The position numbers were made by a program, and so were the translations under genes. Under the pieces are notes generated by a model, which worked only from the letters and a program-made list of their open reading frames with translations, ran no database searches and was not told the origin of the DNA. A stretch of DNA of 63,033 nt, filler included, from Jimgerdemannia flammicorona (Eukaryota), in assembly GCA_003990765.1 (NCBI GenBank). It is 2 parts of 2 records of this genome, joined end to end, with 100 filler letters (N's around TTAATTAATTAA, not from the genome) between each part and the next. Parts side by side here need not be neighbours in the genome. Positions count along the whole stretch, not along the records: positions 31,578 to 63,033 come from RBNJ01000395.1; 1 more part is not named here. One strand, written 5' to 3'. Position 1 is the stretch's first letter; each line of letters starts with the position of its first letter. Below, in pieces: positions 2,460 to 62,249 of this stretch.

Positions 2460-3045
2460 TCAGTTTGGAAATGTGTCTCGGACCTTCTGGAGTAGTGGTC
2501 TGACACGGCTGTCAACTTTGGAAAAATCTTCTTCAGAGTTCTCAGGTTCTCCTTTGGATGGTCGGATGGAGATGGCAAAGAGAGGGCATTTCTTGGCCAA
2601 TTTCTTGAGTTGTAGCTTGTTGATGTGGGTGATCTTTGGTCCAGGGTCACTAGAGTTGAGTGAGTCCTTTTCGCCTTGTAGTTTGAAGTTGTGGCATTCT
2701 TTCTTGATGGTCAGGGAATGGTTTACCCAATCGATCATGGGGTTCTCTTGTTTCAACCATGGAGTCCCAAGGATGATTTCATTATCAGAAAGTGGTACGA
2801 TTTGGAGGGTAACATGTACTCAGTAGTCACCAATTCGGAAGGGTAAATTGCAGACTTCTTTGCTAATAACATGTGAGGTTCCATCAGCTGTAGCAACTGC
2901 TTGAGTTTGCTGTACTGGGGAGGTGAAGACCTTGAGTCTATTGGCTGTCTCTTCATTAATGAAGTTGCCTGAGGCACCACTGTCTATCATAATCTTAACA
3001 GGTGCTCCATTGACAAAAGCTTTAAGGGTGAGCAGTTTGTCTGAT
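2460..3045 (-). pseudogene. Aspartic protease and pre-RT linker of element A
   Basis: IMIDSGASGNF, ILGTPW...IDW, ending LLQKVRDTFPN; TGA stop at ~2820. Confidence 0.9.
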
Positions 3046-3254
3046 CCAATGCTGGTGATTTCAGTTGTAGGAGCTTTCCTTCTATTGGTTCTTCTTTGAG
3101 CCAGTTCGTTGACACAAGAGAAGCAATCATCAATCATTCGGGAAGAATACATTCCAATACCATGAGGGCATCGGCCACTTGGTACATATCTATCTTCGAT
3201 CTTCTTGTAGAATTGTTCTTCTTTGCTCATGATAGGTTGGGCTGGGGCTTTGTT

Positions 3255-3655
3255 TGATGAGCCAAATCCTTGGGATCCTTGGATGGTGGGTAGTAGTTCA
3301 GGGACTTCCTTGACTGTTAGGGTTAACTTGATTTTTTCGAATAGGATCTGGGCGATGCAAAAGCCAATAGGGATCTTGAAGGGTGTCCAACTGTGGTTTC
3401 GGATGAGGACAATGATTTCGCCTGTGTAATCTTCGTCAATGACTCCTCCTTCTACTGAGAGTCCTTTCAGTGCTAGGCTGCTGCGACAGCATATTCTTCC
3501 AACATGTCCTTCATGGATTTGGATACTGATTCCTGTATAGACTTGTTTGACTTCTCGGTTGGAAACTGTAGCTTCTTCGGCTGCATACAGGTCATATCCG
3601 GCTGCTTTTTGGCTTCCTTTGGTTAGGGCCTTAGCAGTTTGTCTTAACTTGACAA
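3255..3655 (-). CDS. dut: Trimeric dUTPase domain of element A (within ORF 2820-3755)
   Basis: Motifs AGYDL, RSSL, GVIDEDYTGEI, RIAQ-like CIAQ, GSQGFGS. Confidence 0.93.
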
Positions 3656-3739
3656 AGTCTAGTGTTCTGGTGGTCAGGTTGTTGAGGTGGTACAGAGTTG
3701 TAACAGTTGCTCGTGTTGCTGTTCGGGGTTTTTGGTTGG

Positions 3740-5650
3740 GGCAGGCACTAGCCATGTGTCCTGTCTTTCGGCAATAGAAGCATACTCCGCTTCTTCGAAG
3801 TTCATTCCATTCACCCTCAGTAAGTTTCTTGAAGGTACTGGACTGGGTAGGTTCATGATTTCTGGGTGTCCAAGAGGTGGATGTGGAGGGAGCTCAGGAT
3901 GCTTCATGCTTGGGTTCTTCTTTCTTGGTCCAAGTCTTTTCCTTGTTGTTGAATTGTCTTCAGGGCAGAATTGGTCCAGCTGTTAGGATTCGCTTGACCA
4001 TGGTCTTGATTCTTACTAGGCACCATTGTTGGTGATCGCAACCAACTGGGCGGCCTTGTTCTCAGATTTTTCTAGTAAGCCATTCAGGTAGTGCATCGAA
4101 TAAATGGTCTGCTCTTGTACCATTTCATGCTTCACCATTGGTGATATATCCTAGGCCAACAGTGTTTAGGAGTGACTCGAGTTTTGTACAGAAAGTTTCG
4201 AATTCTTCCTTGCCATGTACATCGAATTTGAGGTTGCGGAGTTTTACTCGAGATTCAGCAATCATGGTTTCACTGTGGTATTGAGCAATTATGAGTTGTT
4301 TGAGTCCAGGGGCTGCAGGATGAGCTCCATATCCTGGGCATTGTTTGCTGCATTCTGGGCAACTACTGCAGGTCGGGTATCCCATGTGAGGGGTTTTTCA
4401 GGAAGGGTTTGCCACCATTCTTCGGCAGGTCCTCGGAAGAATGTAACAACTCGGCGGACATAAGCTGTAGTTGTAGCAAAGAGTTATTCTAGGGTGTGGT
4501 CTTGATTGTTTGTCAGAACGCGATCAGCAACTCGCTCATTAGTCCATTGATTGGCTTCGAAGTTGGTGTCAACTACACTAATGAAGCTTTGGACTTCTTG
4601 TGCAGTACTATTGAAGGTAGGTAGGCTCAGATTTTTGGTAGGTCGGGTCTGTTCAGCTAAGGCAGTAATGGTTGCTGCCATTATAGCCACTTGGGCTGTG
4701 AGGTCTAGAATCTGTTGGTTCACCATATTGTTTACTGGAGGCGGCTGGACTGCCGGTAGTGGTGTTACTGGTACTACTTGAGGTATAGGTGCAGAGTGTG
4801 ATGGGGTTCTTTGGGTCTGTGTAAGCTACTGGAGTAGTAGTTGTGGGTCTGGAGTGAGGGCTTGATAGATAGCTGTTTGTTGCTGTATAGGTGTATTCTG
4901 TCCTGATGGATGTGTGTCTCCTTCAGTGGTATATCCGGGATCGAATTCGGTGAGATACTCCTCCTCTTCTTCAGTTTGGTCCCCATGTAATTGGGTTTGC
5001 TCGGCATCAAAATAGACAGAATCAGTTGTATATCTGATTTCAGACGGACTTAATTCAAAGTCAAGTTCAGGTTCGGTATTGATTTCAGATTCAGATAGGG
5101 CTGTAGCAGGACCTGCTTCAGGTTCGGGGTCAGGTAGTTGATGAAGGGTTTCTCTTGCTTCTTCTTTGAGAATATGGCGGGCCTTGCTGTTCTGAAATCA
5201 GTAGTATAATGTGGTCTTGGTCCTGGTGCAGTGAAAGTCGGTAGAGTTGAGCCACTTGGCTACAGAGGCTTAGGCTTCGTGAGGAACTAAGGCTAGAAAG
5301 ACTGTTGCTGGTTGTCCTAGGTCACTTGGATTTGTAGAGCTGACAAAACTCTTGTTGAGAAGAGTAAAGAAGACTTCAATAAGACCTTCTTCATCTTGAC
5401 TTGCTGGGTATAGTGCAAGAAGTTTAGTGAATAGGGTTTCGCCTATTTGCTGGTTTAACCGGAGTACTTCTTTCTTAGAATGAAGTTTATCCCACTTGTT
5501 GCAGGTGTGGAGGTCAAATTGTCCTTGTACATCAGGTTCAATTCTCTCCAGATTGTCAGATTGTTCAGATAAATTCCAGTTCAGAGGTTGGGCTTTATAC
5601 CAACTTGTAGGAATTCGCAGAGGGGTTTGTAGCGGGGTGAGGAAGCATCT
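3740..5650 (-). pseudogene. Gag of element A with long N-terminal extension and CCHC knuckle
   Basis: CFYCRKTGHMASAC at ~3740-3785; capsid-like FFRGPAEEWW; reading frame traceable with few stops from just after the PBS. Confidence 0.8.
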
Positions 5651-7179: not shown

Positions 7180-9183
7180 ATTACCTTCATTGATGATTTT
7201 GAGCAGTATACTGCTGTAAGAACCCTGACAGCAGTACAGCAAGTAGCCCTCATGCCCTTCAGCCTATGAGGTCCTGCCAGAGTAGCATTTACAGCCACAA
7301 TCTATGTAGGAAATGATGCTGATGCTATACTGACAGTATAGAAGACCTGGCTCCAAAATACATATTATACAGATGAGATTAAGCAAGTCCTGAAGGATCA
7401 GCTCAACACAACATACCAAGAAATGAGTGAGGATCCAAACACATTCTATACCAGAACTTGATATCAGATAATCCTTGCAGATTATGCTGCTGCTATCCAA
7501 GATCAAGTAGCCGAAGCAACCTTCATAAAAGGAGTTCACCCAGAAATAGCTATGGCCATCTGCTCATCACCAGTGATTCTGGATCTGCCACAGAAGGTCA
7601 CCTATGCTCAGTGATACTGGATAGCCAGACACCCACAAGACCATACAATAGAGAGAGTTACAGGAGTCAGAATCGAGGCACCTAAGTCAACCAGTGTGAT
7701 CCCCACCACAATGATCAATCAAAACACACCTCAGCCCAAAGCTACAAAGCAGTAAAAGAACAGTGACCCTCTGGAGGAACTTACCAAGAGGTTCGTGGAA
7801 ATGACTGCCCACTTGGGGGATATAGTAAAGGAGATCAGAGAAAGAGACCACTACTCTGTCCAGAAGTTTGCTGTCACCTCAGACAAGAAGAAAGACACCT
7901 GCTATACTTGTGGAGAAGAAGGCCACTACTCCTATGAATACATGAGCAAAACCAAGCACAAGGCTCAACCAAGCAATGCTATATGAAACAAGGAGCAGAC
8001 CAATACAATTACCTTTGAGAAAATTGGAGATTCTGATGAAAAAGAATAGGAGGCCTATCCTGCTCAGACTACCAAGAAGGATGTTCACAAGGAACTCTAC
8101 AAGAGATCACCAGGAAGACCCAAGAAGAACCCAGTAGAAAAGTAGATAGAAACAGTTACTGAAAGCCAAGCTAAAGAGATGGACCAAGATATAGAGCTGG
8201 AGCAAGCAGTTCAAGATATTATCTGAGGAACTACCCCAGCCAGCAAAGGAGAAAAAGAAAAGAAACTTTGCAAGACCAAGACTTTTAAGTACAATATCTT
8301 CAAGGACCTTAGCCAACAAAAGGTCAATGCAACCTTTGGTCAGCTTGCAGAAATCCCAACATTCAGACAACAAATGAGGTTCAGACTTGCTGAAACAACC
8401 AAGGAGCAAGGATGGAAGATAACCGAGGCCAATAACATTCAAGAGGACTCAGGAGAAGAAAGTGAAGACAATCGCAAAACCTCTACCTATGTAATATGTC
8501 AAATCGAAGATAGAGTTTTTAATGCTATCATCAATACTGGAGCAGGAGGATGTCTTCTCAGCAAGAAGGCAGCAGACCACCTAGGTTGGGAGGTTGAAGA
8601 AGTAACTAAGTTGGTATTTATCACAGCAGATGGCACAAGAGCTACCCCTCTGGAAAAGATCTGAGATGTCCCCATCAAGATTGGAGAAGCAACCATCTCA
8701 GTAGACATGATTGTAACCAATGCCACTAACTATGACATCCTCATCAGCAATCAATGGCTTCACAAAGCTAGGGCAGTAATCGATCTCAATGCCCAGAAGA
8801 TGCAAATCACCTACCAGGGACAGAGGATACGAATTCCCATCAATATCAACAAAGGAGTCTTGCCTGACATGGAAAAAGAAGAGAGCGAGCAGGAGGAAGC
8901 TTATATGGTAACTATTCCAAAGAGGAAAGTAGAATGGATAAGTAAGGAAGAATAGTGCAAAAAGATCGCAGAAGACTATGCACCACAAGGAGTCTGTTCT
9001 CACAGGATCAAGATGTACTGTATAGAGCATGTCAATGATTGCTATCAATGCACCATCAGAATCAGAAAGATTCACCAGGAAAGAAGACAGAAGGCTCTCA
9101 AAAAACAGATTAGAGAAGAAAAGGAGGAGGAAGATGATGAACCACTAGCCCTTCTGGAGGATAGTGATGATGAAGAAATCAAT

Positions 9184-9600
9184 GTCAAGATTCAAAGAAC
9201 CCACCCTGATGCAGTTCTGCCAGAATACAAGTCAGAAAATATAGCTGGAATAGACATTACTACAGTAGAAGAAGTCATACTGGAACCCCAGACAACCACC
9301 TTACTCGCAACTGGACTGGAAATGACCATTCCAAAAGACCATGTTGGGATCCTCAAGACAAGAAGCAGTCTGGCCAGAAGCAAAATTACAATTGAAGGAG
9401 GAGTCATCGATTCTGACTATACTAGAGAAATCCTGCTCATTGCTAGGAATCACAATCCTACAATTCCATTCTCAGTCAAGAAGAAGGACCAATTGGCACA
9501 GATGCTGATCTTTCCAATCCTATAACCAAGGATCATAGAAGTCAAGGATCTGGAGGAAACGAAAAGAGAAAAGAAAAGATTTGGATCCACAGGAAGAGGA
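9184..9600 (+). pseudogene. dut: dUTPase domain of element B, between protease and RT
   Basis: AGIDI, TRSSLA, GVIDSDYT, LAQM, RFGSTG; stop at 9523. Confidence 0.9.
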
Positions 9601-14068: not shown

Positions 14069-14073
<5 letters not shown>

Positions 14074-14142
<69 letters not shown>

Positions 14143-19068: not shown

Positions 19069-22000
19069 ATGGAAATGTGTCCCTACACATTCTATAGATA
19101 TACTACTGAAGAGTCAATCCTGACCTTCATTGAAGACTTTGAACAATTCGCCACTGTATGAGCCCTTAGTGTGGATGCTCAATTGGCCCTTCTACCAGTC
19201 AGCCTCAGAGGACCTGCTAGAGACAAGTTCAATGCAGCCACCATTGCTGATGCTGGTGCAGCCAAACTTACCAATATGAAGGTCTTCCTCAGAATAACAT
19301 ATTATACCAAAGAGATCAAGCAAGCTCTCAAGGATCAACTCAATACTATCTGCCAGGGACTTAGTGAAGATCCCAACTCATTCTATACCCAAATTTGCCA
19401 CCAGATTGTCTTGGCTGGCTATGATGACCACCTCAAGGAACAAATAGTGGATTCAACCTTCCTCAAAGGAGTTCACTCTGAAATTGCCCTAGAAATCTGG
19501 TCTACCCCAGCTGCACTGACCTTTGATCAGAAAGTGGTCTTTGCACAGAGATATTAGACTGCCAGACACCCTGCCAAACACTCAATAGAGAAAATAACTG
19601 GCATCAAGATGGAGCTATCAAAGCCAACTAGTATCTTACCTGCCACAGTCATAAACAGACAACCAACCCCACCTACCCCCAAGACAGCCAAAGCTGACCC
19701 AGTGGAGGAACTTGCCAAGCAGTTCACTGAGATGACTGCACACCTTGATGATGTTGTTAGAGAGGCCCAAAGTGCTAACAGGAGACCAGTGCAGATATTT
19801 GTAGCTGCTACAGAAGAATACAATATCACATGCTTCAGATGTAGAGAAGAAGGCCACTATGCAAAGAGTTGCATGACCGAAACAAGATACAAAGCCCAAC
19901 CAAACAATGCTAGCGGAACCAGAGAACAAACCAATGCAGTAGTTATTGAGGAGATTGGTGATACTGATGATGAAGAATACTATGAGGAGCTTGAATTCTA
20001 CCCTGCTACTAAAGATACCAGAACCTGGTCCAAGCCCTATGACAAGAAGAGCAACAGCAAGCCAGTTGGAAGACCAAAGAAGACCCCAGCTGTCACTATT
20101 CAAAGTAAGACCCAACCCAAGAAGATTGATCAAGACATAGAGTTAGATGAAGCTGCCTGCCAAATTATTGAAGGCACTACTCCAGTCTCAGGAGAAAGTG
20201 AAAGCAAGGAGGAACAGAAGCTGTGCAAGACCAAGATCCACCAGTATGATATCTACAAGGACCTCAAGGAACAGAAGGTCAATGCCACTTTTGAATAGCT
20301 AGCTGAAGTCTCTGCCTTCAGACAGCAGTTGAGAGTAGGACTTACAACTACTGCCAAGAATCAAGAGTATAAGATTGTAGAAGCTCACAATGTACAGGAA
20401 GAATCTGAGAACTCAGGTGAAGAATCCAAAGACCAGCACAAGACATCAGCCTATACCTCCTGCCAGATCAAAGACTGTATCTTTAATGCCATCATTGATA
20501 CCAGTGCTGGAGGATGCCTCATAAGCAAGAAGACAATTGATCACCTAGGTTGGGATATTGAAGAGTCCACCAAGATGGTCTATGTCACAGCAGATGGTAT
20601 ATGAGCTACCCCCCTTAGCAAAATCTGAGAAGTCCCCATTAAGATAGAAGGAGCTACCATCCCAGTAGACATAATTGTTACAAGTGCTACTAACTATGAT
20701 ATCCTTATTGGCAACCAATGGCTTCACAAGGCCAAGGCCATCATTGACCTCAATGCCCAGAAGATGCAGATCAACTATAGAGGAAGAAAGGTACAAGTCT
20801 CTATCAATGTCCACAAAGGAGTCCTACCAGACATGGAGGAAGGAGATGGAGAGGACACAGAGGTCTTCATGCACTTGGTGAACAAGAACAAGAGCAAGAC
20901 ACCCAAGCTCACAGATGAGCAGTGGTACAACAAGATCATCAATGGGTATGCCCCTCAAGGAAGATATCCCCATGGTACTAGGATATACTACTCTGAATAC
21001 CTGAATAACTACTGGTCCTATATCAGTGAAATCAGGAAAATCCACCAACAGAAACATGAGCAAGAAGCTGCCAAAGCAAAAAGGAAAGCCGAAGAAGATG
21101 ACCAGCCCCCAGAGCTTTAAGCTGACAGTGATGATGAGGAGGAACAAGAATCAGACATCACCCTCAAGGTCAAGAAGTTTCACCCTGAAGCCAAGATCCC
21201 AGAATACAAGACTGAAGGAGCTATAGTAATAGACCTTGCTAGCATTTAAGATGCTACCCTCAAACCACAGACCACCACCCTACTTGATACTGGAATTGGA
21301 GTCAAGTTACCAGAGAACTATGCCAGAATTATCAAGACCAGGAGCAGTCTGGCCAAAAGCAAAATCTCAGTTAAAGGAGGAGTAATTGACCCTGATTACA
21401 CTGGTGAGATCTTCCTCATAGTTAGAAATCACAACCACACCACCCTCTTTGAAGTCAAGAAGCATGACAGGATTGGCCAGATGCTGATCCATGAAATCAA
21501 GAAGCCTAAGGTCATAGAAGCCATTGAACTCATCAAGACCAAAAGAGGAGAACAAGGCTTTGGATCTACTAGAAGAGGAGCCTATGCTGCCACCAAGATT
21601 ACTGAACTTGAGTACAAGAAAGACAAGGACCAGAACAAGCATACATATACTATTGGAGAAAACTTTCCCCTGGAGGAACAACTTCTCAAGATCCTATATC
21701 AGAATGAAGGAGTACTTGCTACAGACTTTAGAGATATCCACAATCAAGAGCCCAAGTACTATCACAAAGTTGACACCAGTGATATCAAGCCCATCTATCA
21801 GAAAGCCAGACCCATACCATCTGCCTACAGAGAGTGGCTGCGAGCAGAACTCAAGAAAATAGAAGAAGCTAGAATCATCAAGCAAGCTATCAGCCCCTGG
21901 GCCTCACCCATTGTCCTAGCCCCGAAGAAAGAAAGCAAGCCTGGAGAGTTTGTACCAAGACTCTGCATTGACTACAGGAAGCTCAATGCCATTACCAAGA

Positions 22001-24264
22001 AGGATAGGCAGCCCTTGCCGAATATTCAAGAAATCCTTACCACCCTTGGAAACAAAACCAAATACTACACCACCTTGGATCTGTTCTCAGGCTTCTATCA
22101 GATTGGTCTCACTTAAGATGCTAGTGAGAAATCAGCCTTCATCATACTTAATGCCACCTATATCTATCTGCGAATGCTATTTGGAATGTGCAATGCCCCA
22201 GCAAGTTTTCAGCAAATGATGAACAGAGTCTTCAGCAATGAGATTGGAAAATGGCTCTTTGTCTATATTGATGATGTGATCATCTTCAGCAACACTGCAT
22301 GGGAACATGTCAATTACATACAGCTAGCTCTCAAGAGCTCTACATCAAGCCCAAGAAATGCAAGTTTGCAGCTCAAGAAATCACCTACCTAGGACACCTC
22401 ATCAACCAGACTGGAATCCACACGATCAAGGCTGTTGCAGCCTACCCAAGACCCAGAACAACCACAGAAGTCCATGTCTTTCTTGGACTGGCTAGCTACT
22501 ACAGAAGATTTATCAAAGGATACTCCAACATTGCAGCACCTATCTATGAGCTACTGAAGAAGGAGACCAAATTTGAATGGACCAAAGAGCACCAAGAAAC
22601 CTTCAATAAACTCAAGATCAGGTTGACCCAAGCACCTATCCTCAGAAGATCAGACTGGAACCTAGAATTCATCCTGCAGACAGATGCACATGCTATAGGA
22701 CTTGGAGCAGTCCTAGCTCAGAAGAAAGATGAACATGAATATATCATCTCCTATGCAAGCCAAGGTACCCATAGAGCAGAACAGAACTATGAGTCATGCA
22801 AGCTTGAATGCTTAGCAGTAGTCTGGGCAGTAGATAAGTTCCACTACTACCTAGCTGGGAAACACTTCACCATTTAAACAGATTATTCCACTCTTGCCTG
22901 GCTATTCCACACTCTGAACCCCAAAGGAATATATGCCAGATGGATCTACAGGCTGCAAGAGTATGACTGTACTGTCAAGCACCACTCAGAAAAGACCAAC
23001 ATCAATGCTGATGCACTCTCAAGGATACCCTGAAACACCCCCATCAAGACTATTCAACATGAATAAGGAGCTATACTATGGATTAATCAGCTATCTTGGG
23101 CAGCAGAAGATGCCCAATCACCTCAAACCCTGGACAATCACCATCATCAACCAGACTTGGAAACAGTTTGAATTAGACAACACTACACTCAGAAAAGGAG
23201 GAAAGCTAATAATACCTGAACATAAGAAGTATCAAGTAATGAAGGAAGTACATGAGCAAGGATACTTAGGAGGAATCAACACATACGACAAGGCAAGAAG
23301 AACCATGTAGTGGCCCAAGATGGAAGAAGACCTGTACCAATTTGTCAAAGGGTGTGATAAGTGCCAAAAACAGAAACAAGATCAGCAAGACCAGGCATCC
23401 AGGTCATCAAGAATTGAGCCTATCCCCTTCCACCACATCACAATGGATATCATTGGACCACTACCAGTAACACTATCAGGAAACTGCTATATTATAGTTA
23501 TTATAGACCTCTTCACCAAATGGATAGAGGCAGGAGCATTACAAGAAGCCAATGCTCTCTCTATAGCCGACTTCCTATATCAAGAAATCATCTGCTACTA
23601 CAAGACACCAAAGCAAATCACAATAGACTATGGAATGGAATTTGTCAATAGATTCTATGAGATAATATATCAGAAATACAAGATCCAGCACATCAAGACC
23701 ACTGTGTACCACTCTCAAGAAAATAGACAGACAGAGAGAACCAACAAGACCCTCAAGAACATTCTAGTGAAGATCTCAGAGACATATGAGAATTGGGATA
23801 ACTATCTCCCAACTGCCCTCTCTGTCCTATAAGACATATGGTCACAGAGCACACATTTTACCCCAAGAGAGCTGCTCTTCAGAGAAGAAGATTCTGATGG
23901 AACCTCAGCCACAAATCTAGACCTAACTTGGAGACGGGTTGATGCAGAAATCTGGAGACTACACCAAATCAGGAAGAAGGCTGAAGATTATATCACTAAG
24001 TCACAAGCACTGATAAGGAAGAATGCAGAAAAGAATTACAAGGCCCTAGAACTCATATGAATCAGATAAAAGGTTCTACTATATTGAAATATGGTAGAAG
24101 CCTCATAGTTGTGAAAACTGGAGCCCAAATGGGAAGGACCCTTCTATATACAAGATATCAAGGGAACTACCTTTTGGCTTAGAAAAATCTCAGAGACCAT
24201 ACTGCCTACCACAGTATATAGGAACAGGCTCAAGAAGTACCACAAACCTATACAAGAGAAGTAA
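19069..24264 (+). pseudogene. gag-pol of element C, including dUTPase (~21165-21570)
   Basis: Continuous domain order interrupted by transition-derived stops and a few indels. Confidence 0.93.
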
Positions 24265-31477: not shown

Positions 31478-31577
31478 NNNNNNNNNNNNNNNNNNNNNNN
31501 NNNNNNNNNNNNNNNNNNNNNTTAATTAATTAANNNNNNNNNNNNNNNNNNNNNNNNNNNNNNNNNNNNNNNNNNNN
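31478..31577. other. Assembly gap / artificial contig linker
   Basis: 44 N + TTAATTAATTAA (stops in all six frames) + 44 N = 100 bp. Confidence 0.97.
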
Positions 31578-40849: not shown

Positions 40850-41585
40850 TTTTTTTTTATTTTATTTTACAACTTGAAGTCTTATAAATTTTATTAGAAG
40901 AGAACTAGAATATATAGACCAAAACTCCTCTCTGAGCACTATATCTTTATTAAATCTAAGCTATCTATTATTCAGTAGCTCAACTATATCAGATACAGTA
41001 GCATTTATAATTATCTATATCTCATTCTATATACTATGCTCTTTTTATTATTAAAGAGTAACAATTATATACTCATAATTAAAGATATATATCTAAAACC
41101 CTAATATATGTATAAGACTATACTTGAGTGTTTTATATAGTCTCTACTATCTCAAGTAGAGTAATAGATAAGAAAAATCTCCATTAAAGTACAAAATAGT
41201 AAGTATGTAGTACCTTGTTCTTCCTAATGATATAGAAGAATACTTCTAATACTCCACCACTCAAGTCTATAGACCTTGATTGTATTACTATATTAGCTCT
41301 TGGTTTCAGTTGAATATAGTTAAGATATCTAATCTAGATAGCCTCAGATCTCTCAACTACCTTCAATAATCAAGGCATAATCTTATAAATTATCAAAAGT
41401 AGCTAAGAGTGATACTGACAATCTAACTACCCTACAACAATCAGAAGGCCTCACTGATATTATATTTGCTCTAGTCCTGATAACTATCTCTAGCCTATTA
41501 CTCTACTAGTTTACTATAATTACTCTTTCGCCTATCTATAATTATTATCTCTTCTTCTATTCTAACTCTATTTAAAAAATAATTA
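40850..41585 (-). mobile_element. Poly(A) retroposon copy 4 (3' part, eroded)
   Basis: Homologous to 14140-14890; T-rich tail at 40849-40869. Confidence 0.78.
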
Positions 41586-41586
41586 C

Positions 41587-41622
<36 letters not shown>

Positions 41623-41665
41623 GGGAAATTTTTTTTTTTTTTTTTTTTTTTTTAATTTTTTAAAA

Positions 41666-41705
<40 letters not shown>

Positions 41706-41715
41706 TCTTTATAAC

Positions 41716-42489: not shown

Positions 42490-43976
42490 ATGGCGACCCC
42501 CCAAAATCTACAGGAACGCACTCTATCTTTGGTCAAGGTGCGTCTTCATTGACCTCTACTCCTCTGTGGACAACAGCATCATTCATCCCAAAACTACACG
42601 TTCGCTTTCATTCTATAGCACCCTCAGTTCTTCTGGTGGCTAGGTCACCTGACGCTCCTCATCCACTTCGCCTTATATCTTTTTACCGTTGTAACATTCC
42701 GATCCTATGCCGGCTATTATCATCGTGCCTATCTTGGTGCTCTAGTTTCGTATGGTGTAGTTGTCTACAAATCGTTCGGCGTAAGTCGGCTTTTTCATTC
42801 GCCTAGTTATCAATGGCAGGTTTCTGGGCATCAGCCACACATTTGCGCGAATGTGTACCTCGAACCAAGTGCTAACTCAAGACGAATACGGACTTACTGC
42901 TTGGTGTTTATGCCAACGCATCCTGAATTCAGTACAACACTTCGGGGTACAATTTGGTAGACAATGCGATCAATGTTGAGCCAATGCCTGGATAAACACA
43001 TTTGATATATACGTTATTTGGAAGATGCTATGTTTGGGGTTGTGATTGACAAAATACTATTCGGGCTTCTCTCGCACGCGATTTTCACTCGGGCAACAAT
43101 CTTAGCGTTGCATTTTCATCATACTAGATCGGTATTTGAAATTCTTGCTAAATATCTTACTGTTTACATCCTTCATTAAAGGTTCCGCAATTGTCGATGG
43201 AATATGCTCAACGATTTTTCATGGATGAAAACGTTCAATACCTTTTCCTTGCATTTTACTGGTACTCGAACTCGCCAATTTTAGGTTCGTATCCCGCCTT
43301 GTTAGTCTTCCTTTTTATCACATCGGTTGATATCTCACATAAACAATTCTCCTATATTCCTACAGTCACCTTGATACCCTTCGCGACCTTTTCGGCATTT
43401 CACACCTTGGGTTACCTCCGTACCAATATCATTCCCACTTTTTTTCCGACGAACGCGACATCGCAGGCCACCAATAGTGCCGCTTCCTCTTCTGCCCCAA
43501 CATCGTCTGCCGGCTTTCCGACTCAGATTTCTCTAGCCATCAAGAAGTGGACTGACCAAAACTATGGCCCTGCAATGCAATTTGTAAGCTATATTGAAGT
43601 GGTCGGTGTCATGGGCCGCTTGCTCTTGGGGGCCATCACGTACGTGACTGTTGGTTTCTTTATTGAATATATCAGGTTCAAGAACCGATGTTTTGTGACC
43701 ACTTAAGCTTACTGCTCGCGTGTATGACTCTTTAGCTTCCAGACATCGTTCCTGGCTCCCCTTGTTTATGCCCATTTCCTGCGTCTGCGGTATTTTATGT
43801 CCTCTTACACCCGCGATGCCCTCCTCAAAGTGTCGGCCAGGTTGGACACGCTCCTACTCCCTCCGACCGCAGATGCTCGAATTCCCCCTGCTGTTGGCAA
43901 GGTTTACGCAACTATAAAAAGCCTTGTGGTTCGGTATGGTCAGAGTGCCGTGCAACAAACTCAATCTGCTCGTTAA
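42490..43976 (+). CDS. POM33: TMEM33/Pom33/Tts1 (UPF0121) ER-nuclear envelope membrane protein, 5 exons
   Basis: MATPQNLQERTLSLVK / HPQFFWWLGH...AYLGALVSYGVVVYKSFG / ...DENVQYLFLA / TLIPFATFSAFHTLGY / ...YAHFLRLRY; GT-AG introns; TAA at 43974. Confidence 0.9.
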
Positions 43977-45259: not shown

Positions 45260-47690
45260 TCAGCCATTGAGGAACAGAGAAATGATCACATCTATATATT
45301 GAAATGTCCGACATTTCGACCGCAATTTTTTAGGAATCACTTGCTTCCTAATTCTTTTGCGTGAAGGTGTCGTGAAGCTTATAGGAAGTTGAATATCAAC
45401 CTTGCGTTTTGCAGGACCAATCCCAACTTTCTTTAAATTCAGCGGAATGTTTTGGATCAGACGTATCGTTCTTTCGAAAAAAAGATGTGCAAAATTAATT
45501 TGAGGTATGTAATAGAAGACAATTATCGAAAAATGCTAACGATTAGCTCTAGAACGATTTCTACATCCTCAGGAATTTCGAACAAATCTATCTTCGTGAT
45601 CCTTGTTACATATCCAGCGGGGTTGTCTAATACCATAATCATCAGCACAAGACCTAGAAAACACAACAAGATTATTTAAGCTGCAAAAGCGAAAGGGACG
45701 GAACTGAAAATTTTCAAATCATACCTCCGTGTATATATCCCACTGTTTCGAGTTTATGGACGACATTCGGTTGCCATTTGACACGCTCAGAGATCGAAAA
45801 GCATATCACGGAGCATTTTTGGTAATTTCAGCCCGCTTTCGGCGAGCCACTTTGTGCCATTTTCGCCGTGATAATATCTTCCAACCTCTGCAGCGCCAAA
45901 TTCTAGTGCACGACCACTGGTACTTTTCCTAATTGCGTCGCCCCGTCTACCAATCACTTTCCTTTCTGTATGGTCTTGCTTGCGGCTCTTGTTTTTTCTG
46001 TTACTGCTAGAAATGCTACACGACTCTCCTCTATGGTGAAGATAGCAAATGATGAGAGAATCGTCTCGATGAAACATAACCAGCAAATCTCTGCAAGCTA
46101 CCTTGCAACATCTATTCCTCTAATATCTCCAAAAACTTTGTCTATGGTGGGACCCCAAATATTTAGGTTATACCACGCTTCCAGGTGGTTCATGCAGAGA
46201 GGATTTGGCTGCCTTTCATATAGGTGGACTCTAACAGATGAACTTAATTTAGTGTCAGTTATGTATAATTGTCACACATCAACGACACTTACAAATTCTG
46301 CACAGCATAACAGATCATATCAATTGGGAAAGCTTTCTGGGCATCATAATTAGCATCTCGTCGTCTCGCAAATTGGCTAATCGCGTCACGAATTTCACCA
46401 ACACTGGTCTATAAAAAAAAGGTTGAGATTAGTCAATCGTATGTGCAAATATGCATTATGTCAAAAATGATCGATCATCAGTTACCTTTGAGAGCACTTC
46501 AATACATTTTTCAGTATCATTATCAAGCACTATATCATCCTTGGAATTTGTACATTCTAACTCCTCCCTTTCTTCGTCAGTAAATAGTGCACAGATCTGT
46601 TGATCTTTCAGATCAATGATGAAAGAATGCACCGAACTATTCCGAATAAAAATAAAAACGAAAGGCTAGACTTACTTTTCAAAATGACACTGCATTCCAT
46701 ACTTGTATAGAATGTCCTCAACTTTCCGTCCTGACTTGAGCTTCCATTTTGAACTATCGTCCATGCTCTCGAACATCGCCTTATACTCCCTCCTTGATAT
46801 ATCCGTAAGAGGTGTTCTCGATATTCTGGATGTGCCCTCTACATCTTCATAATCTTCGTCACTATCCTCATCCCCTTCGTTTTCGTTATGATTTAGCTCC
46901 ACATCGATACCTTCATCATCTTCGAAACCATAGTCTTCGACAACATCCCGATCACTATCAAAGCCTTTGCTTCCATAAAGCGAACTTTTCTTTGATCCTT
47001 CAGCCAAAACATCTGCTTTCTAAATCCGAGCAGCATTAGACAAAAAGAAAGGTATTGATTACAATTAATACGATGCGACCATACATTGAGTCAAAGACGA
47101 AATGTTGTGATACTTACGCGATTATCGCTATCCAAAAATCCTTCGACATGTCGAGAGACAAGAAATCTTCTCTTCTGCTCCTCCGTCGACTGTGAACAAC
47201 GTAGTCATTAATATAAATATCAATGTATTATTGGAAGGCATCTTTAGTGCGGCTGTACATACTTTCTGAATATCTGTGGCAACGGTATCTATTCGATAAC
47301 GTATGCTTTGACTGACATAACTTTGTATAGCTCTCTCCGTGGCACTTTCCAACTGCTCCAACGGCTAAAGAATTTTGAACGCAACAGGAGCATATCAAAT
47401 GTTTGCCCTCGATTTTATTACCTGGTATTCACGCAACCGTTTAATAATGGATCTATATCCACGAGAAATCTCTTTCCTTGAACTTAGGTCATCTAATAAA
47501 TCGAGCCACAACCGCTCCACATCCCCAACGGATTCCACAGGGATTTTCTGTATAATGATTTGTTGCACGAAGAGTTGATATGACCAGTCGTTTATGTTAA
47601 TAGCAGCCAGTGCTGGGTGAATATCCGTCGGTGGTTTGAAAGGTGGAGTATCCGGTGTCAAAAACACACTGGGTCGTGCGATCTTGTTGA
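45260..47690 (-). CDS. Multi-exon protein with putative PD-(D/E)XK-like nuclease domain of a fungal-expanded family
   Basis: Exons encode KWKLKSGRKVEDILY, SVHSFIIDL, GESCSISSSNRKN...GRRGDAI...LEFGAAEVG...K.PKMLRDM, MVLDNPAGYVTRI, PISFTTPS. 5' end uncertain; may be partly disrupted. Confidence 0.6.
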
Positions 47691-47767
47691 AAGGCCAATT
47701 GTTTACATTGTGGCTTATCGAAATTAAATATATGTATATATACAGTCGTGTGCAGCACGATAAGATC

Positions 47768-48050
47768 ACAGCTCTGTCTCTTCCTGCGGCCCTGCGGCGA
47801 GGAAGCCGGAGCTGCGCGTTTATGAACTATATGCGGCCCTGCGGCGATATAGTTCCTCTGGCGCACCTTACATCAAATGCTATTGCGGCCCTGCGGCGAT
47901 ATAGTTCCTCTGGCGGCCCTGCGGCGGATAGCCTCTTTGTGGTAAGGTCAGAAGGTAAAACGGAACAACGCTGCGGCCCTGCGGCGAGCCTAGTTCTAAG
48001 ATGGTCTTCAATCGTTGTGCGGCCCTGCGGCGACAAATGATTTGAAGCCA
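47768..48050 (+). repeat. Array of hairpins with invariant 14-nt loop GCGGCCCTGCGGCG and variable complementary stems (candidate structured ncRNA)
   Basis: Loop copies start at 47786, 47833, 47885, 47913, 47973 and 48019; flanks are mutually unrelated inverted repeats, several with G-U pairs. Confidence 0.85.
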
Positions 48051-49417
48051 TGTTCAATATACTGATTGTTGATCGATTTCTTCGGCAAGAAACATGACCT
48101 CCCTCCCTAAAGCCCTCCTCATCTCGCACAGATGAATTACCAGCCTCGGGAGACGATCGTATAATACCTTCAAAATGTAGTCTGATCATCTTGATCATCT
48201 TAAAGTTGCTGCATTCGTCGTCAAGATTGTTCGGGTAATGCTTAAAACTAAAGTGGAATCTTTATTGTTTCCTTTTTTTGATGTCAGTGCTAATGTGTTT
48301 AATGTGCCTATGCAGAAAATAAGAAAGAGCGACAAAGAAGATATTCGATGCTGAGAACACGATACCGACTGGATGTGTGATGCTCAGGAAGAGACGCGTA
48401 AGAATACTGCACCATCCATCTTTTTTTTTTTCTATAGTAAGGAGAATGTGCCTAATTGACTTTAGTTGTTACTTGCCTGCAGATTGTCAAACTTACATGA
48501 ACCTAAGAATGATGACGACGAGGCCAATCCTATATTTTGATGGTGGTGCCTGTATTGGTGTTGGTGAGAGATGGGCTGGGCGATGAACGGGAGAATGCCA
48601 AAGAGCAATTTTAGAAACGGAAAGGTTCTTGGTATGGGAAGTCATACTATGGAGGGATATAGCTTTGATAATTATGTATGACACAGAACTATCCCTATAT
48701 AAAATATACATATGAAACTAATTTACATCAAATCTACTATGGAACTAAAGAACTATAGAAGCATCTTGAAAAAAGAACAAGGAGAGAAAATTACTCCTAA
48801 TATTTTCTAAATATTTAACATTAAAGCTATTTAAGATTATTTGGATAAAGAGAGAATTATCTATGAAATTTATCAACAATTATATATCAGTTCTGATAGA
48901 GATATAAATATTACTTATTAAGAAGATACTTCTGAACAAAGTTAAGAGAAATTGAATTCAAAGAAGTGAGAATTATCAGAAACTTCAGAAGAATTAAGAA
49001 AAAAAATATATATATATAAAGAGTAAAGATATATAGAGATAGTCCTATATATTCTTTAATATATTATATAGAGAAAATTTAACAAAATTAGACAAACTAT
49101 ATATAAAATATAAAATATATAATAAATAATACAATTATAAATAAATATAAGAAAGTTTTGTAATTTTTAAAAGTAGACTATAGCTATAGTTATTCTATCA
49201 AAATATCTAAAGAAGAGTTTGCTAAATTACAGAAAGTCTTTTAAGCTCTTAGTAAACTTAAATAAGATATTTTCTTAATAGTTCAACTGAGATCTATAGT
49301 TAGGAGAGTGATCAATACTAGTTGATGTTTTAAGAATAAGACTTATATCAATAAAAGAACTATCTACTAGAATTATAATATGTACTCCTATTTACTAAAA
49401 AAAACTTACCTTAATAT

Positions 49418-52697: not shown

Positions 52698-54548
52698 TCA
52701 CTTCTGATAGATCGCCATCACCCGGCTCATCTTGCCCGCGAACGCCACAGACTCCTGCATGGCCTGCGCGGCGTTTTGTACCACCGCCGATACATGCTCC
52801 GGGTCCTGGTTTGCGGCTGCGGCGCATGGTTTGGCCAAATCCTTGAGCCGCTTCCAGGCTAGATGCGAGATCGTCACTTCCGACTGGTGCGTCAGTCTAC
52901 CGCTGGAGGCCGTGTCTTGGTCAACGGAAGTAATGGTTACTTTAAAGAGTTCATTTCTGCGGAAGAGGGAAGAAAATGAGCCATATGGATGGGGTCGCAA
53001 ACTTCGTCGTTATATGAAGTGCCTATATAAAAAATGGTTGGTGGGCTTCGGGGCCCAAGCTATCAACAGCAGACTGAAAACACTTCCGTCTTACCGATAC
53101 TGTCTCTTCCTCTGATATTCAACGCACTCAAACAAGATTTCGCTCGAGTCAACGAACCGCATTCTCCTTCTGTCATCAACGCGCGCCAACTGCGCCTGCC
53201 GCGTCTGCACGTAGTCACGGATCAACCGGTCCCCACTCGCACCACCTCGTTCCACCGCTGGGTCCCGCGACGATAAGGATAAACGGTGATCCACCGAGTT
53301 TAAGTACGGCTCTACGAAGGATAGGATCGCTATGCGGCGGTATCGATCTCGGAGCTTTATGAGCTGCCAGCGGCCTGGGAGGGGGAGGGGGGGTAAAGAG
53401 GATTATGGACGGAGATATAAAAAGAGAAGGAAATTGTAGGAGAATACACGAAAGAGAGCTGACAACAGTTTTAGGGAATTAAACAGCGAAACATATCAAA
53501 ATAATAATAATGCAATACCTCTAATATCATCCCATTTAAGATAAGCAGTGGTACGACGATCGTGTAAATTGGAAGTATAATGAACGACTATAACATCTTC
53601 AATCTTTGAATTTTCAAAACCTGTATCGAAAACAACGGGGGGTCGTCAGTTTCACTTTCGCCAACCCTTTATCCGCCCCTAAATCAAATACTCACACCCC
53701 ACCTCACCTTCTAGAAACAACCAATCCGCCAACAACGACATATCCCCCATGGGCAGCCCGACCCTAAACCAAGACCGTATAGGCTTCCCCACAACCTGCT
53801 CGCACCACTCAGGCACGGTCATCCCTCCATACCCGCTTTCGGCCTCGACGTACGCGACGGGCACATCCGCAAACAGTTGGTGCCCGAGCCGGATCTCCAG
53901 CGATAGCTGCTGGTCTGGCACGGCGGCTGCGTCGCGGATCTCGCGTGCCACACTCTCAAGGCATGACGGCGCCGCCGTCGTCTCGCAGAAGGTGTGGTTC
54001 GCTGGATCGGACGGGATGCCGTCGGACGCAAAGTGGTGCGGGCCCCCGCCGGCGTTGTGGTAGTAGTAGGTAGTGGGAACGGGTGTCGGTTTTGAACAAA
54101 TGGCTTTGTATTGCACCGAGGGAGATTCGGCGGGCACGAGCGGACCGACGCCGTTGGTGGGAGGTGAGTAAGATGCGGCTAAAGGGTAAGGGATAAAGTG
54201 AATTGTTTCCTGTGGGCGTAAGGAATGAGAGTAATCTGGGGAATCGCGGAGCTCGCCCGGGTCGACGTCGCGGTTGAGGATGACATATACAAGGTTAGGG
54301 TTGAGGAGGCGGAGCTGGCGCTCACGGTCGACGGCCCGCTTGATGATGGATTTTGCCTGGTGGACAGAGGCGGGGTCGCCGCTCCGGATCACAAAGCGAC
54401 ACGCATTCTCTTCGTTATTGGTGTAAATCTGGACGCCGGTGCTTTTGCTGCGGAGAGGGAGGGTTGAGGGGGGGGTATTCGGGAAGCAAAGGAGGTTGGG
54501 AAGTTTGAGAGATGAATGTTGCATAGAATTTCGTGACAGGCGGCCGAA

Positions 54549-54596
<48 letters not shown>

Positions 54597-54715
54597 AAAA
54601 AAAAATACGCGAGAGCTTACGCAATACTCTGTATGCCGGAACCCTTCTTTCCGATAACGTATCCAGCAAATTGCTTTGGGAGGGCGATTGAATCTACGAA
54701 ATAAACGGGCTTCAT
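52698..54715 (-). CDS. KH-domain protein, multi-exon, with uncharacterised C-terminal domain
   Basis: MKPVYFVDSIALPKQFAGYVIGKKGSGIQSI (GxxG loop), intron 54620-54450, SKSTGVQI...VHQAKSII; last exon ends ...MAIYQK* at 52698. Confidence 0.75.

Positions 54716-62184: not shown

Positions 62185-62249
<65 letters not shown>

Follow-up and report, generated by a model that had tools for sequence, protein, structure and literature searches.

An array of stem-loops with identical tips and unrelated stems, of putative function, beside a nuclease-like gene in Jimgerdemannia flammicorona

The array and its neighbouring gene

An array of five imperfect hairpins, here called U1 to U5, lies upstream of a nuclease-like gene in J. 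flammicorona, a member of the Endogonales (Mucoromycota). We analysed it within a window of 63,033 bases, by which we mean the whole stretch of DNA under study. The gene, which is interrupted by several introns, is encoded on the minus strand. Its conserved exons, located by tblastn and a six-frame listing, lie within 45263..47682 and belong to a Mucoromycota gene family with a PD-(D/E)XK fold. Fragments of the gene match two deposited J. flammicorona proteins, P0001 from one strain and P0002 (BC938DRAFT_479470) from the other, and P0002 is encoded exactly by the window. Reckoned from the first conserved codon (47682), the array begins 87 bases upstream, in agreement with the original prediction that it abuts the 5' end of a nuclease-like gene.

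The deposited P0002 model translates part of the array. Exon 1 of this model (47872..48051, minus strand) corresponds to residues 1-60, begins with an ATG at 48051, runs through U5, U4 and half of U3, and is followed by a GTAAGG donor. Intron 1 (47683..47871, minus strand) has GT...AG boundaries and contains U1, U2 and the left arm of U3. A search for relatives of residues 1-60 recovered only P0002 itself among 123 candidates at E up to 10, with a query that is blind to arrays with other stems. Relative to the frame of the P0002 model, the six copies of the constant 14-mer described below fall in phases 0, 1, 0, 2, 2 and 1. Four of them are inside exon 1 (phases 0, 2, 2 and 1), and the other two are in the predicted intron. 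Because all three phases are represented, the 14-mer is not a peptide repeat, as had been predicted. In the six-frame listing, the frame of the exon remains open when followed upstream from the first conserved codon and contains no ATG, and the transcript start must therefore be further upstream. The P0001 model opens with 14 residues that are not encoded in the window, so the upstream region of the other strain may differ. Exon 1 of P0002 probably codes for no conserved protein, and the 5' end of the deposited model, in which the array is translated, is probably incorrect. The array itself probably sits in the 5' leader, an intron or the promoter of the nuclease-like gene.

The protein encoded by this gene belongs to a very large family. 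With an E cut-off of 0.001, a profile search retrieves 2327 representative proteins, of which 387 remain when the cut-off is 1e-30, and all named relatives are from Glomeromycotina and Endogonales. The window holds a single family gene; tblastn with P0001, P0002 and 157 other family proteins finds matches only at 45-47 kb. The gene has no match in Pfam, no relatives were found in viral contigs, and when the family profile was run against Protein Data Bank sequences, the best E was 0.53. The conserved domain was modelled with AlphaFold in the form of family member P0029, using an 89-sequence alignment (pLDDT 89.9; a 10-sequence model had a pLDDT of 36.7). Foldseek returned only weak rows for the P0029 model (best E 0.016), whereas VIA-align matched it to the nuclease domain of BpuSI with a Z score of 11.1 (rmsd 3.8, 154 aligned). 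The next VIA-align matches are DrdV (Z 10.6), two mitoribosomal proteins (10.4) and HsdR (8.4), and below these comes a long run of restriction enzymes and Holliday-junction resolvases. Twenty-nine chains have Z scores of at least 5, and most of them are nucleases by entry title. An Atlas search also points, weakly, to the PD-(D/E)XK fold. Residues D74, E87, E92 and K104 (P0029 numbering) are nearly invariant in the 89 sequences, and the copy of the gene in the window retains GRRGD, EFG, EVG and GTK. On the strength of the predicted model, the neighbouring protein has a PD-(D/E)XK restriction-endonuclease-like alpha/beta core, and the label originally given to the gene is therefore retained at the level of fold.

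Both deposited models miss the last exons of the gene, P0001 ending at ...MLFDL and P0002 earlier. Extra exon-like frames at 45526-45675 and 45263-45535 (minus strand) resemble the C-terminal part of homologues (DNPxGY...EVP, ...TTP). An open frame at 43152-43706 (plus strand), some 1.5 kb beyond the 3' end of the gene, matches TMEM33/Pom33, an ordinary housekeeping gene. An A+T-rich, decayed transposon relic starts ~650 bases to the right of the array, and pieces of LTR retrotransposons abound throughout the remainder of the scaffold. Polyprotein pieces of such elements at 2820-3893, 8956-9525 and 21250-22116 carry a dUTPase domain beside aspartyl protease and reverse transcriptase, and several diverged LTR-polyprotein copies across the scaffold are 71-96% identical. 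Self-comparison also detects a recurrent simple-sequence tract at 14070-14142, 41583-41714, 54547-54607 and 62186-62247 (85-100% identity). Positions 31478-31577 of the window hold two runs of 44 N.

Anatomy of the array

The constant element of the array is the 14-mer GCGGCCCTGCGGCG. An exact-match scan of the 63,033-base window finds the six exact copies that had been predicted, all on the plus strand and within 47786-48032, where 0.03 copies are expected by chance; six or more copies occur in none of 100 shuffles. No further match with two or fewer mismatches is found elsewhere in the 63,033 bases. Copy 1 (47786..47799), with a T on its 5' side and an A on its 3' side, forms the tip of U1, and copy 2 (47833..47846) forms the tip of U2. 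Copy 3 (47885..47898) is at the tip of U3, where it adjoins the left arm, and copies 5 (47973..47986) and 6 (48019..48032) are at the tips of U4 and U5. Copy 4 (47913..47926) lies within a 28-base insertion and is flanked by G on both sides, not by T and A. In five of the six copies, the constant part is the 16-mer TGCGGCCCTGCGGCGA, in which the T and A enclose the 14-mer. The 14-mer can itself fold into a small cap with four G-C pairs and a loop of three or four bases, at approximately the same energy on both strands. Gaps of 14-46 bases separate the copies, and the constant part accounts for 14-16 of the about 47-60 bases in each unit. Over a 37-base stretch beginning at the 16-mer, the copies are 62% identical to each other when the duplicate is left out.

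The flanks of each tip pair with each other, and the unit-by-unit pairings listed in the original prediction are reproduced by RNAfold. The hairpins are described here without regard to strand. U1 (47769..47814) has an outer 8-bp and an inner 6-bp stem around its tip, with folding energies of -26.3 kcal/mol on the plus strand and -23.2 kcal/mol on the minus strand. U2 (47824..47855) has a perfect 9-bp stem. The arms of U3 (47865..47948), at 47865-47884 and 47927-47948, are interrupted by the insertion. U4 (47962..47997), with 5 + 3 bp, is the weakest unit (-12.5 kcal/mol), and U5 (48001..48051) has about 16 bp with bulges (-20.4 kcal/mol). The stems as predicted by RNAfold include bulges and internal loops and carry 14-base tips. 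A Smaug/Vts1-type CNGGN pentaloop was sought on the minus strand, but no structure up to 2 kcal/mol above the optimum contains it.

On either strand, the outer stem of U3, ACCTTAC / GTAAGGT (47865-47871, 47941-47948), resembles a consensus 5' splice donor. The minus-strand donor in this stem is the donor of intron 1 in the deposited P0002 model.

To measure pairing, the 25 bases on each side of the 14-mer were scored in a loop-anchored manner and compared with 4000 random positions in the window. The score of U1 is equalled or exceeded at 10 of the 4000 positions, that of U2 at 9, that of the outer arms of U3 at 7 and that of U5 at 3. The score of U4 is marginal: it is equalled or exceeded at 318 of the 4000 random positions, and by 11 of 1000 shuffles of its own flank. 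Pairing is therefore individually clear in four of five units. A gap-free alignment took in four units, U3 being left out because the insertion splits its arms. In this alignment, 80.6% of 36 cells pair, compared with 50.1% when partners are shuffled, and none of 500 shuffles reaches the observed value. When partners are slid instead, 36-53% of cells pair. Both sides vary in six of the nine stem pairs of the same alignment. Thus, the stems differ yet keep their pairing, as had been proposed.

The folding energy of the whole 301-base region is not distinguished from that of dinucleotide shuffles (z -0.65 and -0.66 on the two strands), since 24 and 26 of 100 shuffles, respectively, fold as well. 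The signal is therefore the pairing of each unit around a constant tip and not overall stability; shuffled G+C-rich sequence also folds well, and so it is the architecture, not the energy, that sets the array apart. The expectation that the stems would outperform shuffles accordingly stands for the per-unit pairing, is marginal for U4, and fails for the energy of the whole region. Across the window there are 25 hairpins, against 14-24 in five shuffles, which indicates no general excess. A hairpin scan detected no other recurring loop in the window, self-comparison revealed no second copy of the array there, and the stem arms have no matches elsewhere in the window beyond four chance 11-mers. 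Overall, the five imperfect stem-loops are genuine; their stems are unrelated in sequence, and their tips are common to all.

The sixth copy of the 14-mer has a separate history. The insertion at 47899..47926 (plus strand) consists of 14 bases from the right flank of U2 and one 14-mer, and is recognized by TRF with a period of 28. The 31 bases at 47885-47915 are identical to those at 47833-47863, after which the copy re-enters the 14-mer by way of a common GCG. The insertion landed in the tip of U3 and split this unit, which bears out the prediction that the extra loop of this unit is a later 28-bp copy. It is a template-switch product, and template switching therefore acts at the array locus.

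The G-U pairs in the stems were originally taken as a sign of selection on the plus strand, but this is not upheld. RNAfold energies summed over units are -94.6 kcal/mol for the plus strand and -86.7 kcal/mol for the minus strand, so that the two strands fold almost equally, and G-U pairs number four on the plus strand and two on the minus strand. When each arm is aligned with its partner, there are 61 matches and 10 mismatches among 71 aligned bases, with 8 gap columns, and the three transitions among the 10 mismatches equal the chance share. The plus-strand specificity of the array is weak.

The tips appear to have been maintained better than the arms. If the arms were originally perfect copies that then decayed neutrally, about 5.9 substitutions would be expected over the six tips, and there are none. 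The Poisson probability of unchanged tips on this assumption is 0.003 for six tips, or 0.02 if four tips are counted. This is modest evidence that the tips are constrained, conditional on arms that were once perfect.

Finally, an origin of the array as a library-adapter or whole-genome-amplification artefact was rejected. Long palindromes are what these artefacts produce, whereas the array consists of five short ones side by side, and we know of no adapter that contains the 14-mer.

Comparison with known systems

Among known systems, iron-responsive elements are one of the closest in plan. In iron-responsive elements, the loop is conserved and the stems vary. Those of transferrin-receptor 1 mRNA, like the array, are several side-by-side stem-loops in one non-coding stretch beside a gene, and the array shares with them a common apical sequence on unlike stems. 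The tips are unrelated, however: that of the array is 14-16 bases long and has its own small stem, whereas iron-responsive elements have a 6-base loop and a bulged C. Moreover, the array is located 5' of a gene in an Endogonales fungus, whereas iron-responsive elements of this kind are in a 3' UTR and are bound by iron regulatory proteins. No Rfam family, the iron-responsive element included, matches the array, whether the gathering score or an E value of up to 10 is taken as the threshold.

Type III toxin-antitoxin systems (ToxIN) likewise have a tandem non-coding array beside a nuclease-like gene. In ToxI, the repeated units are identical to each other, about 36 bases long and cut by the toxin. 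The fungal array does not contain near-identical whole repeat units, as only the 14-16-mer is common to its units. The adjacent gene does not resemble an endoribonuclease of the ToxN/AbiQ type either, its best structural matches being PD-(D/E)XK nuclease domains. Also, unlike ToxIN, the array occurs in a eukaryote, and its neighbouring gene has introns. The features of CRISPR loci (repeats of 23-50 bases, unique spacers of comparable length and cas genes) are similarly absent; the constant part is 14-16 bases long in a eukaryotic gene context, and the gaps of 14-46 bases pair with each other across the repeat, which distinguishes them from CRISPR spacers.

Integron attC sites and bacterial REP elements, which are paired with a tyrosine recombinase and RAYT, respectively, are also arrayed hairpins, and they are recognized as single strands by shape over sequence. 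In attC sites the conserved bases are at the base of the stem, and in REP elements the stem itself is conserved. By contrast, the fungal array conserves the apex, has no recombinase or HUH gene nearby, and is in a eukaryotic host. The array also lacks the features of MITEs or foldback elements, which are a target-site duplication and constant terminal inverted repeats common to dispersed copies; its arms vary from unit to unit and have no counterpart elsewhere in the window.

We searched for pairs of the constant sequence in other genomes. In metagenomes, pairs of the 14-mer that are 14-44 bases apart occur at 17 loci with a G+C content of 0.53-0.75, and all 17 are tandem repeats without complementary flanks, as judged by eye. 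Pairs of the 16-mer TGCGGCCCTGCGGCGA occur at four loci in prokaryote genomes, all of which are hairpin repeats of Acetobacteraceae, and at no locus in viral contigs. The identical 16-mer in these repeats, which come from Acetobacteraceae and Rubritepida MAGs (L018-L021), is inside a constant upper hairpin. In contrast to the fungal array, this 16-mer is the 3' half of a longer constant hairpin, and stems are alike within one array. Because the 14-mer is also found in 17 unrelated G+C-rich repeats, we regard the identity between the fungal and Acetobacteraceae 16-mers as chance.

The L018-L021 repeats are worth describing for themselves. They are intergenic tandem hairpin repeats of about 58-60 bases on contigs of Rubritepida and Acetobacteraceae MAGs. 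Their basal stems differ by locus (CCCGGAT, GACCGAT and GCCGGCGAT), with pairing kept in each. Judging from these sequences, they resemble a REP-like family in which the stem changes are compensatory.

A literature search found no paper that contains the 14-mer or that describes a fungal array of identical loops on different stems, nor any pertinent paper on PD-(D/E)XK proteins of Mucoromycota. Together with the Rfam result, the first of these outcomes agrees with the earlier statement that no described fungal equivalent is known. In sum, the structure is real and unusual, it is known from one locus, and its function is putative.

Possible functions and origins

We tentatively favour a reading in which the array is a cis-acting platform of loop-defined binding sites that belongs to the 5' leader of the nuclease-like gene and operates in single-stranded form, probably RNA, although we consider this possible and not probable. 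One strand of the array would be transcribed as part of the leader of the gene's transcript, and each stem would merely present its tip. A factor that recognizes the tip would then bind the transcript several times and, once bound, would set its translation or stability. An arrangement of this kind has a precedent in transferrin-receptor mRNA, for which PMC4931119 gives five iron-responsive elements in one untranslated region. By this analogy, the number of tips in the fungal array would make the binding multivalent.

We favour the RNA platform because imperfect stems with 14-base tips form in single strands and because the array lies where a leader is expected. Imperfect hairpins with bulges and tips of this size form readily in single-stranded nucleic acid, whereas their extrusion from duplex DNA is not expected. 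We also count in its favour the identical tips on unlike stems, the unit-specific pairing, the constrained-looking tips and the position 5' of the gene, as well as the first exon of the deposited model, which lies on the array and is joined to a canonical GT...AG intron. That the array is local, with no second copy in the window and no hairpin excess, is counted on the same side. Against it we count the shuffle-level energy of the whole region, the transition share of 3/10 and the small strand asymmetry. The array is, moreover, known from one locus in one genome, the upstream region may differ in the other strain, and the 28-base insertion is also compatible with a function-free origin. Provided that it is transcribed and bound, the array would give fungi a clear example of a multivalent, loop-defined regulatory element, and would offer a first handle on a Mucoromycota nuclease-fold family of 2327 representative proteins.

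Nearly as likely, and thus also no better than possible, is that the array is a mutational by-product without function. Here, template switching and slippage at copies of the 14-mer would have made inverted copies of neighbouring sequence and spread the motif locally. The 14-mer would stall replication because it is G+C-rich, holds a direct repeat and folds on itself. The 28-base insertion is itself a template-switch product, with 31 identical bases and a re-entry at 3-base microhomology. Such an origin also fits the absence of a second array in the window, the decay of the A+T-rich transposon relic that the array borders, the lack of a wobble bias among the arm mismatches and the about equal folding of the two strands. 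Simple fold-back priming from the tip, however, does not yield the observed register, because one G is left unpaired before the closing T-A pair. Decayed arms also imply decayed tips, yet the tips are intact (P 0.003 to 0.02). We know of no process that yields five neighbouring palindromes with unrelated arms and one common centre. If the array did arise from template switching, it would be a compact natural record of one motif that seeded several palindromes.

The remaining explanations are all unlikely. The foremost of them is that the array is a promoter cluster of six double-stranded transcription-factor sites whose palindromic flanks are incidental. The 14-mer contains two CGG triplets as a direct repeat, five bases apart, an arrangement reminiscent of the sites bound by fungal zinc-cluster factors. 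The gene is preceded by six identical sites that together span no more than 250 bases, and the tips appear constrained, as might be expected of such a cluster, but the complementary flanks at four or five of the sites are left unexplained.

Somewhat more doubtful is a functional tie between the array and the neighbouring nuclease, in which the array would be a recognition or cleavage substrate, a guide- or antitoxin-like RNA, or one terminus of an element mobilized by the protein. The array does adjoin a gene of the PD-(D/E)XK fold with conserved acidic and lysine residues, and the size of the family (2327 representative proteins) is as expected of selfish or defence genes. However, the two are seen as neighbours at one locus only, the window contains just one family gene and one array, the arms match nothing else in it, and the unit is flanked by neither repeats nor a target-site duplication. 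Nor does the array show the features that define type III toxin-antitoxin, CRISPR, REP/RAYT and attC systems. The antitoxin, guide and recognition-array roles suggested in the original prediction were drawn from adjacency at this one locus; they do not agree with the features of type III toxin-antitoxin and CRISPR systems, and they are not supported. The stronger proposal that the array and the PD-(D/E)XK gene are one module of a kind undescribed in eukaryotes, in which the fixed-apex hairpins would be the nucleic-acid partner of a fast-expanding Mucoromycota nuclease family (its substrate, a guide-like or immunity RNA, or a mobile-element end), is less probable still. If true, the variable stems would carry specificity or would record past events.

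There is a similarly small chance that the array represents subterminal repeats or a remnant of a transposable-element end. Some DNA transposons have direct subterminal repeats of 10-20 bases, and the scaffold is rich in transposons. Nevertheless, the window has no second copy, and the array is associated with neither a terminal inverted repeat nor a target-site duplication. In transposon families, the arms are constant and the interior is variable, and the array, with its variable arms and constant centre, is the opposite.

Least probable among these, with the module, is that the array is a real coding exon on the minus strand encoding residues 1-60 of P0002. The ATG at 48051, the open frame and the GTAAGG donor would suit an exon, and each strand has one largely open frame across the array, of 90 of 94 codons on the plus strand and 73 of 93 on the minus strand. 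The three phases of the 14-mer, the lack of relatives of residues 1-60 among the 123 candidates and the different start of P0001 nonetheless argue against it. Frames of this length are also obtained from shuffles that preserve structure: 25% of them give a minus-strand frame of at least 73 codons, and 6.6% give a plus-strand frame of at least 93 codons, a stricter threshold than the 90 observed.
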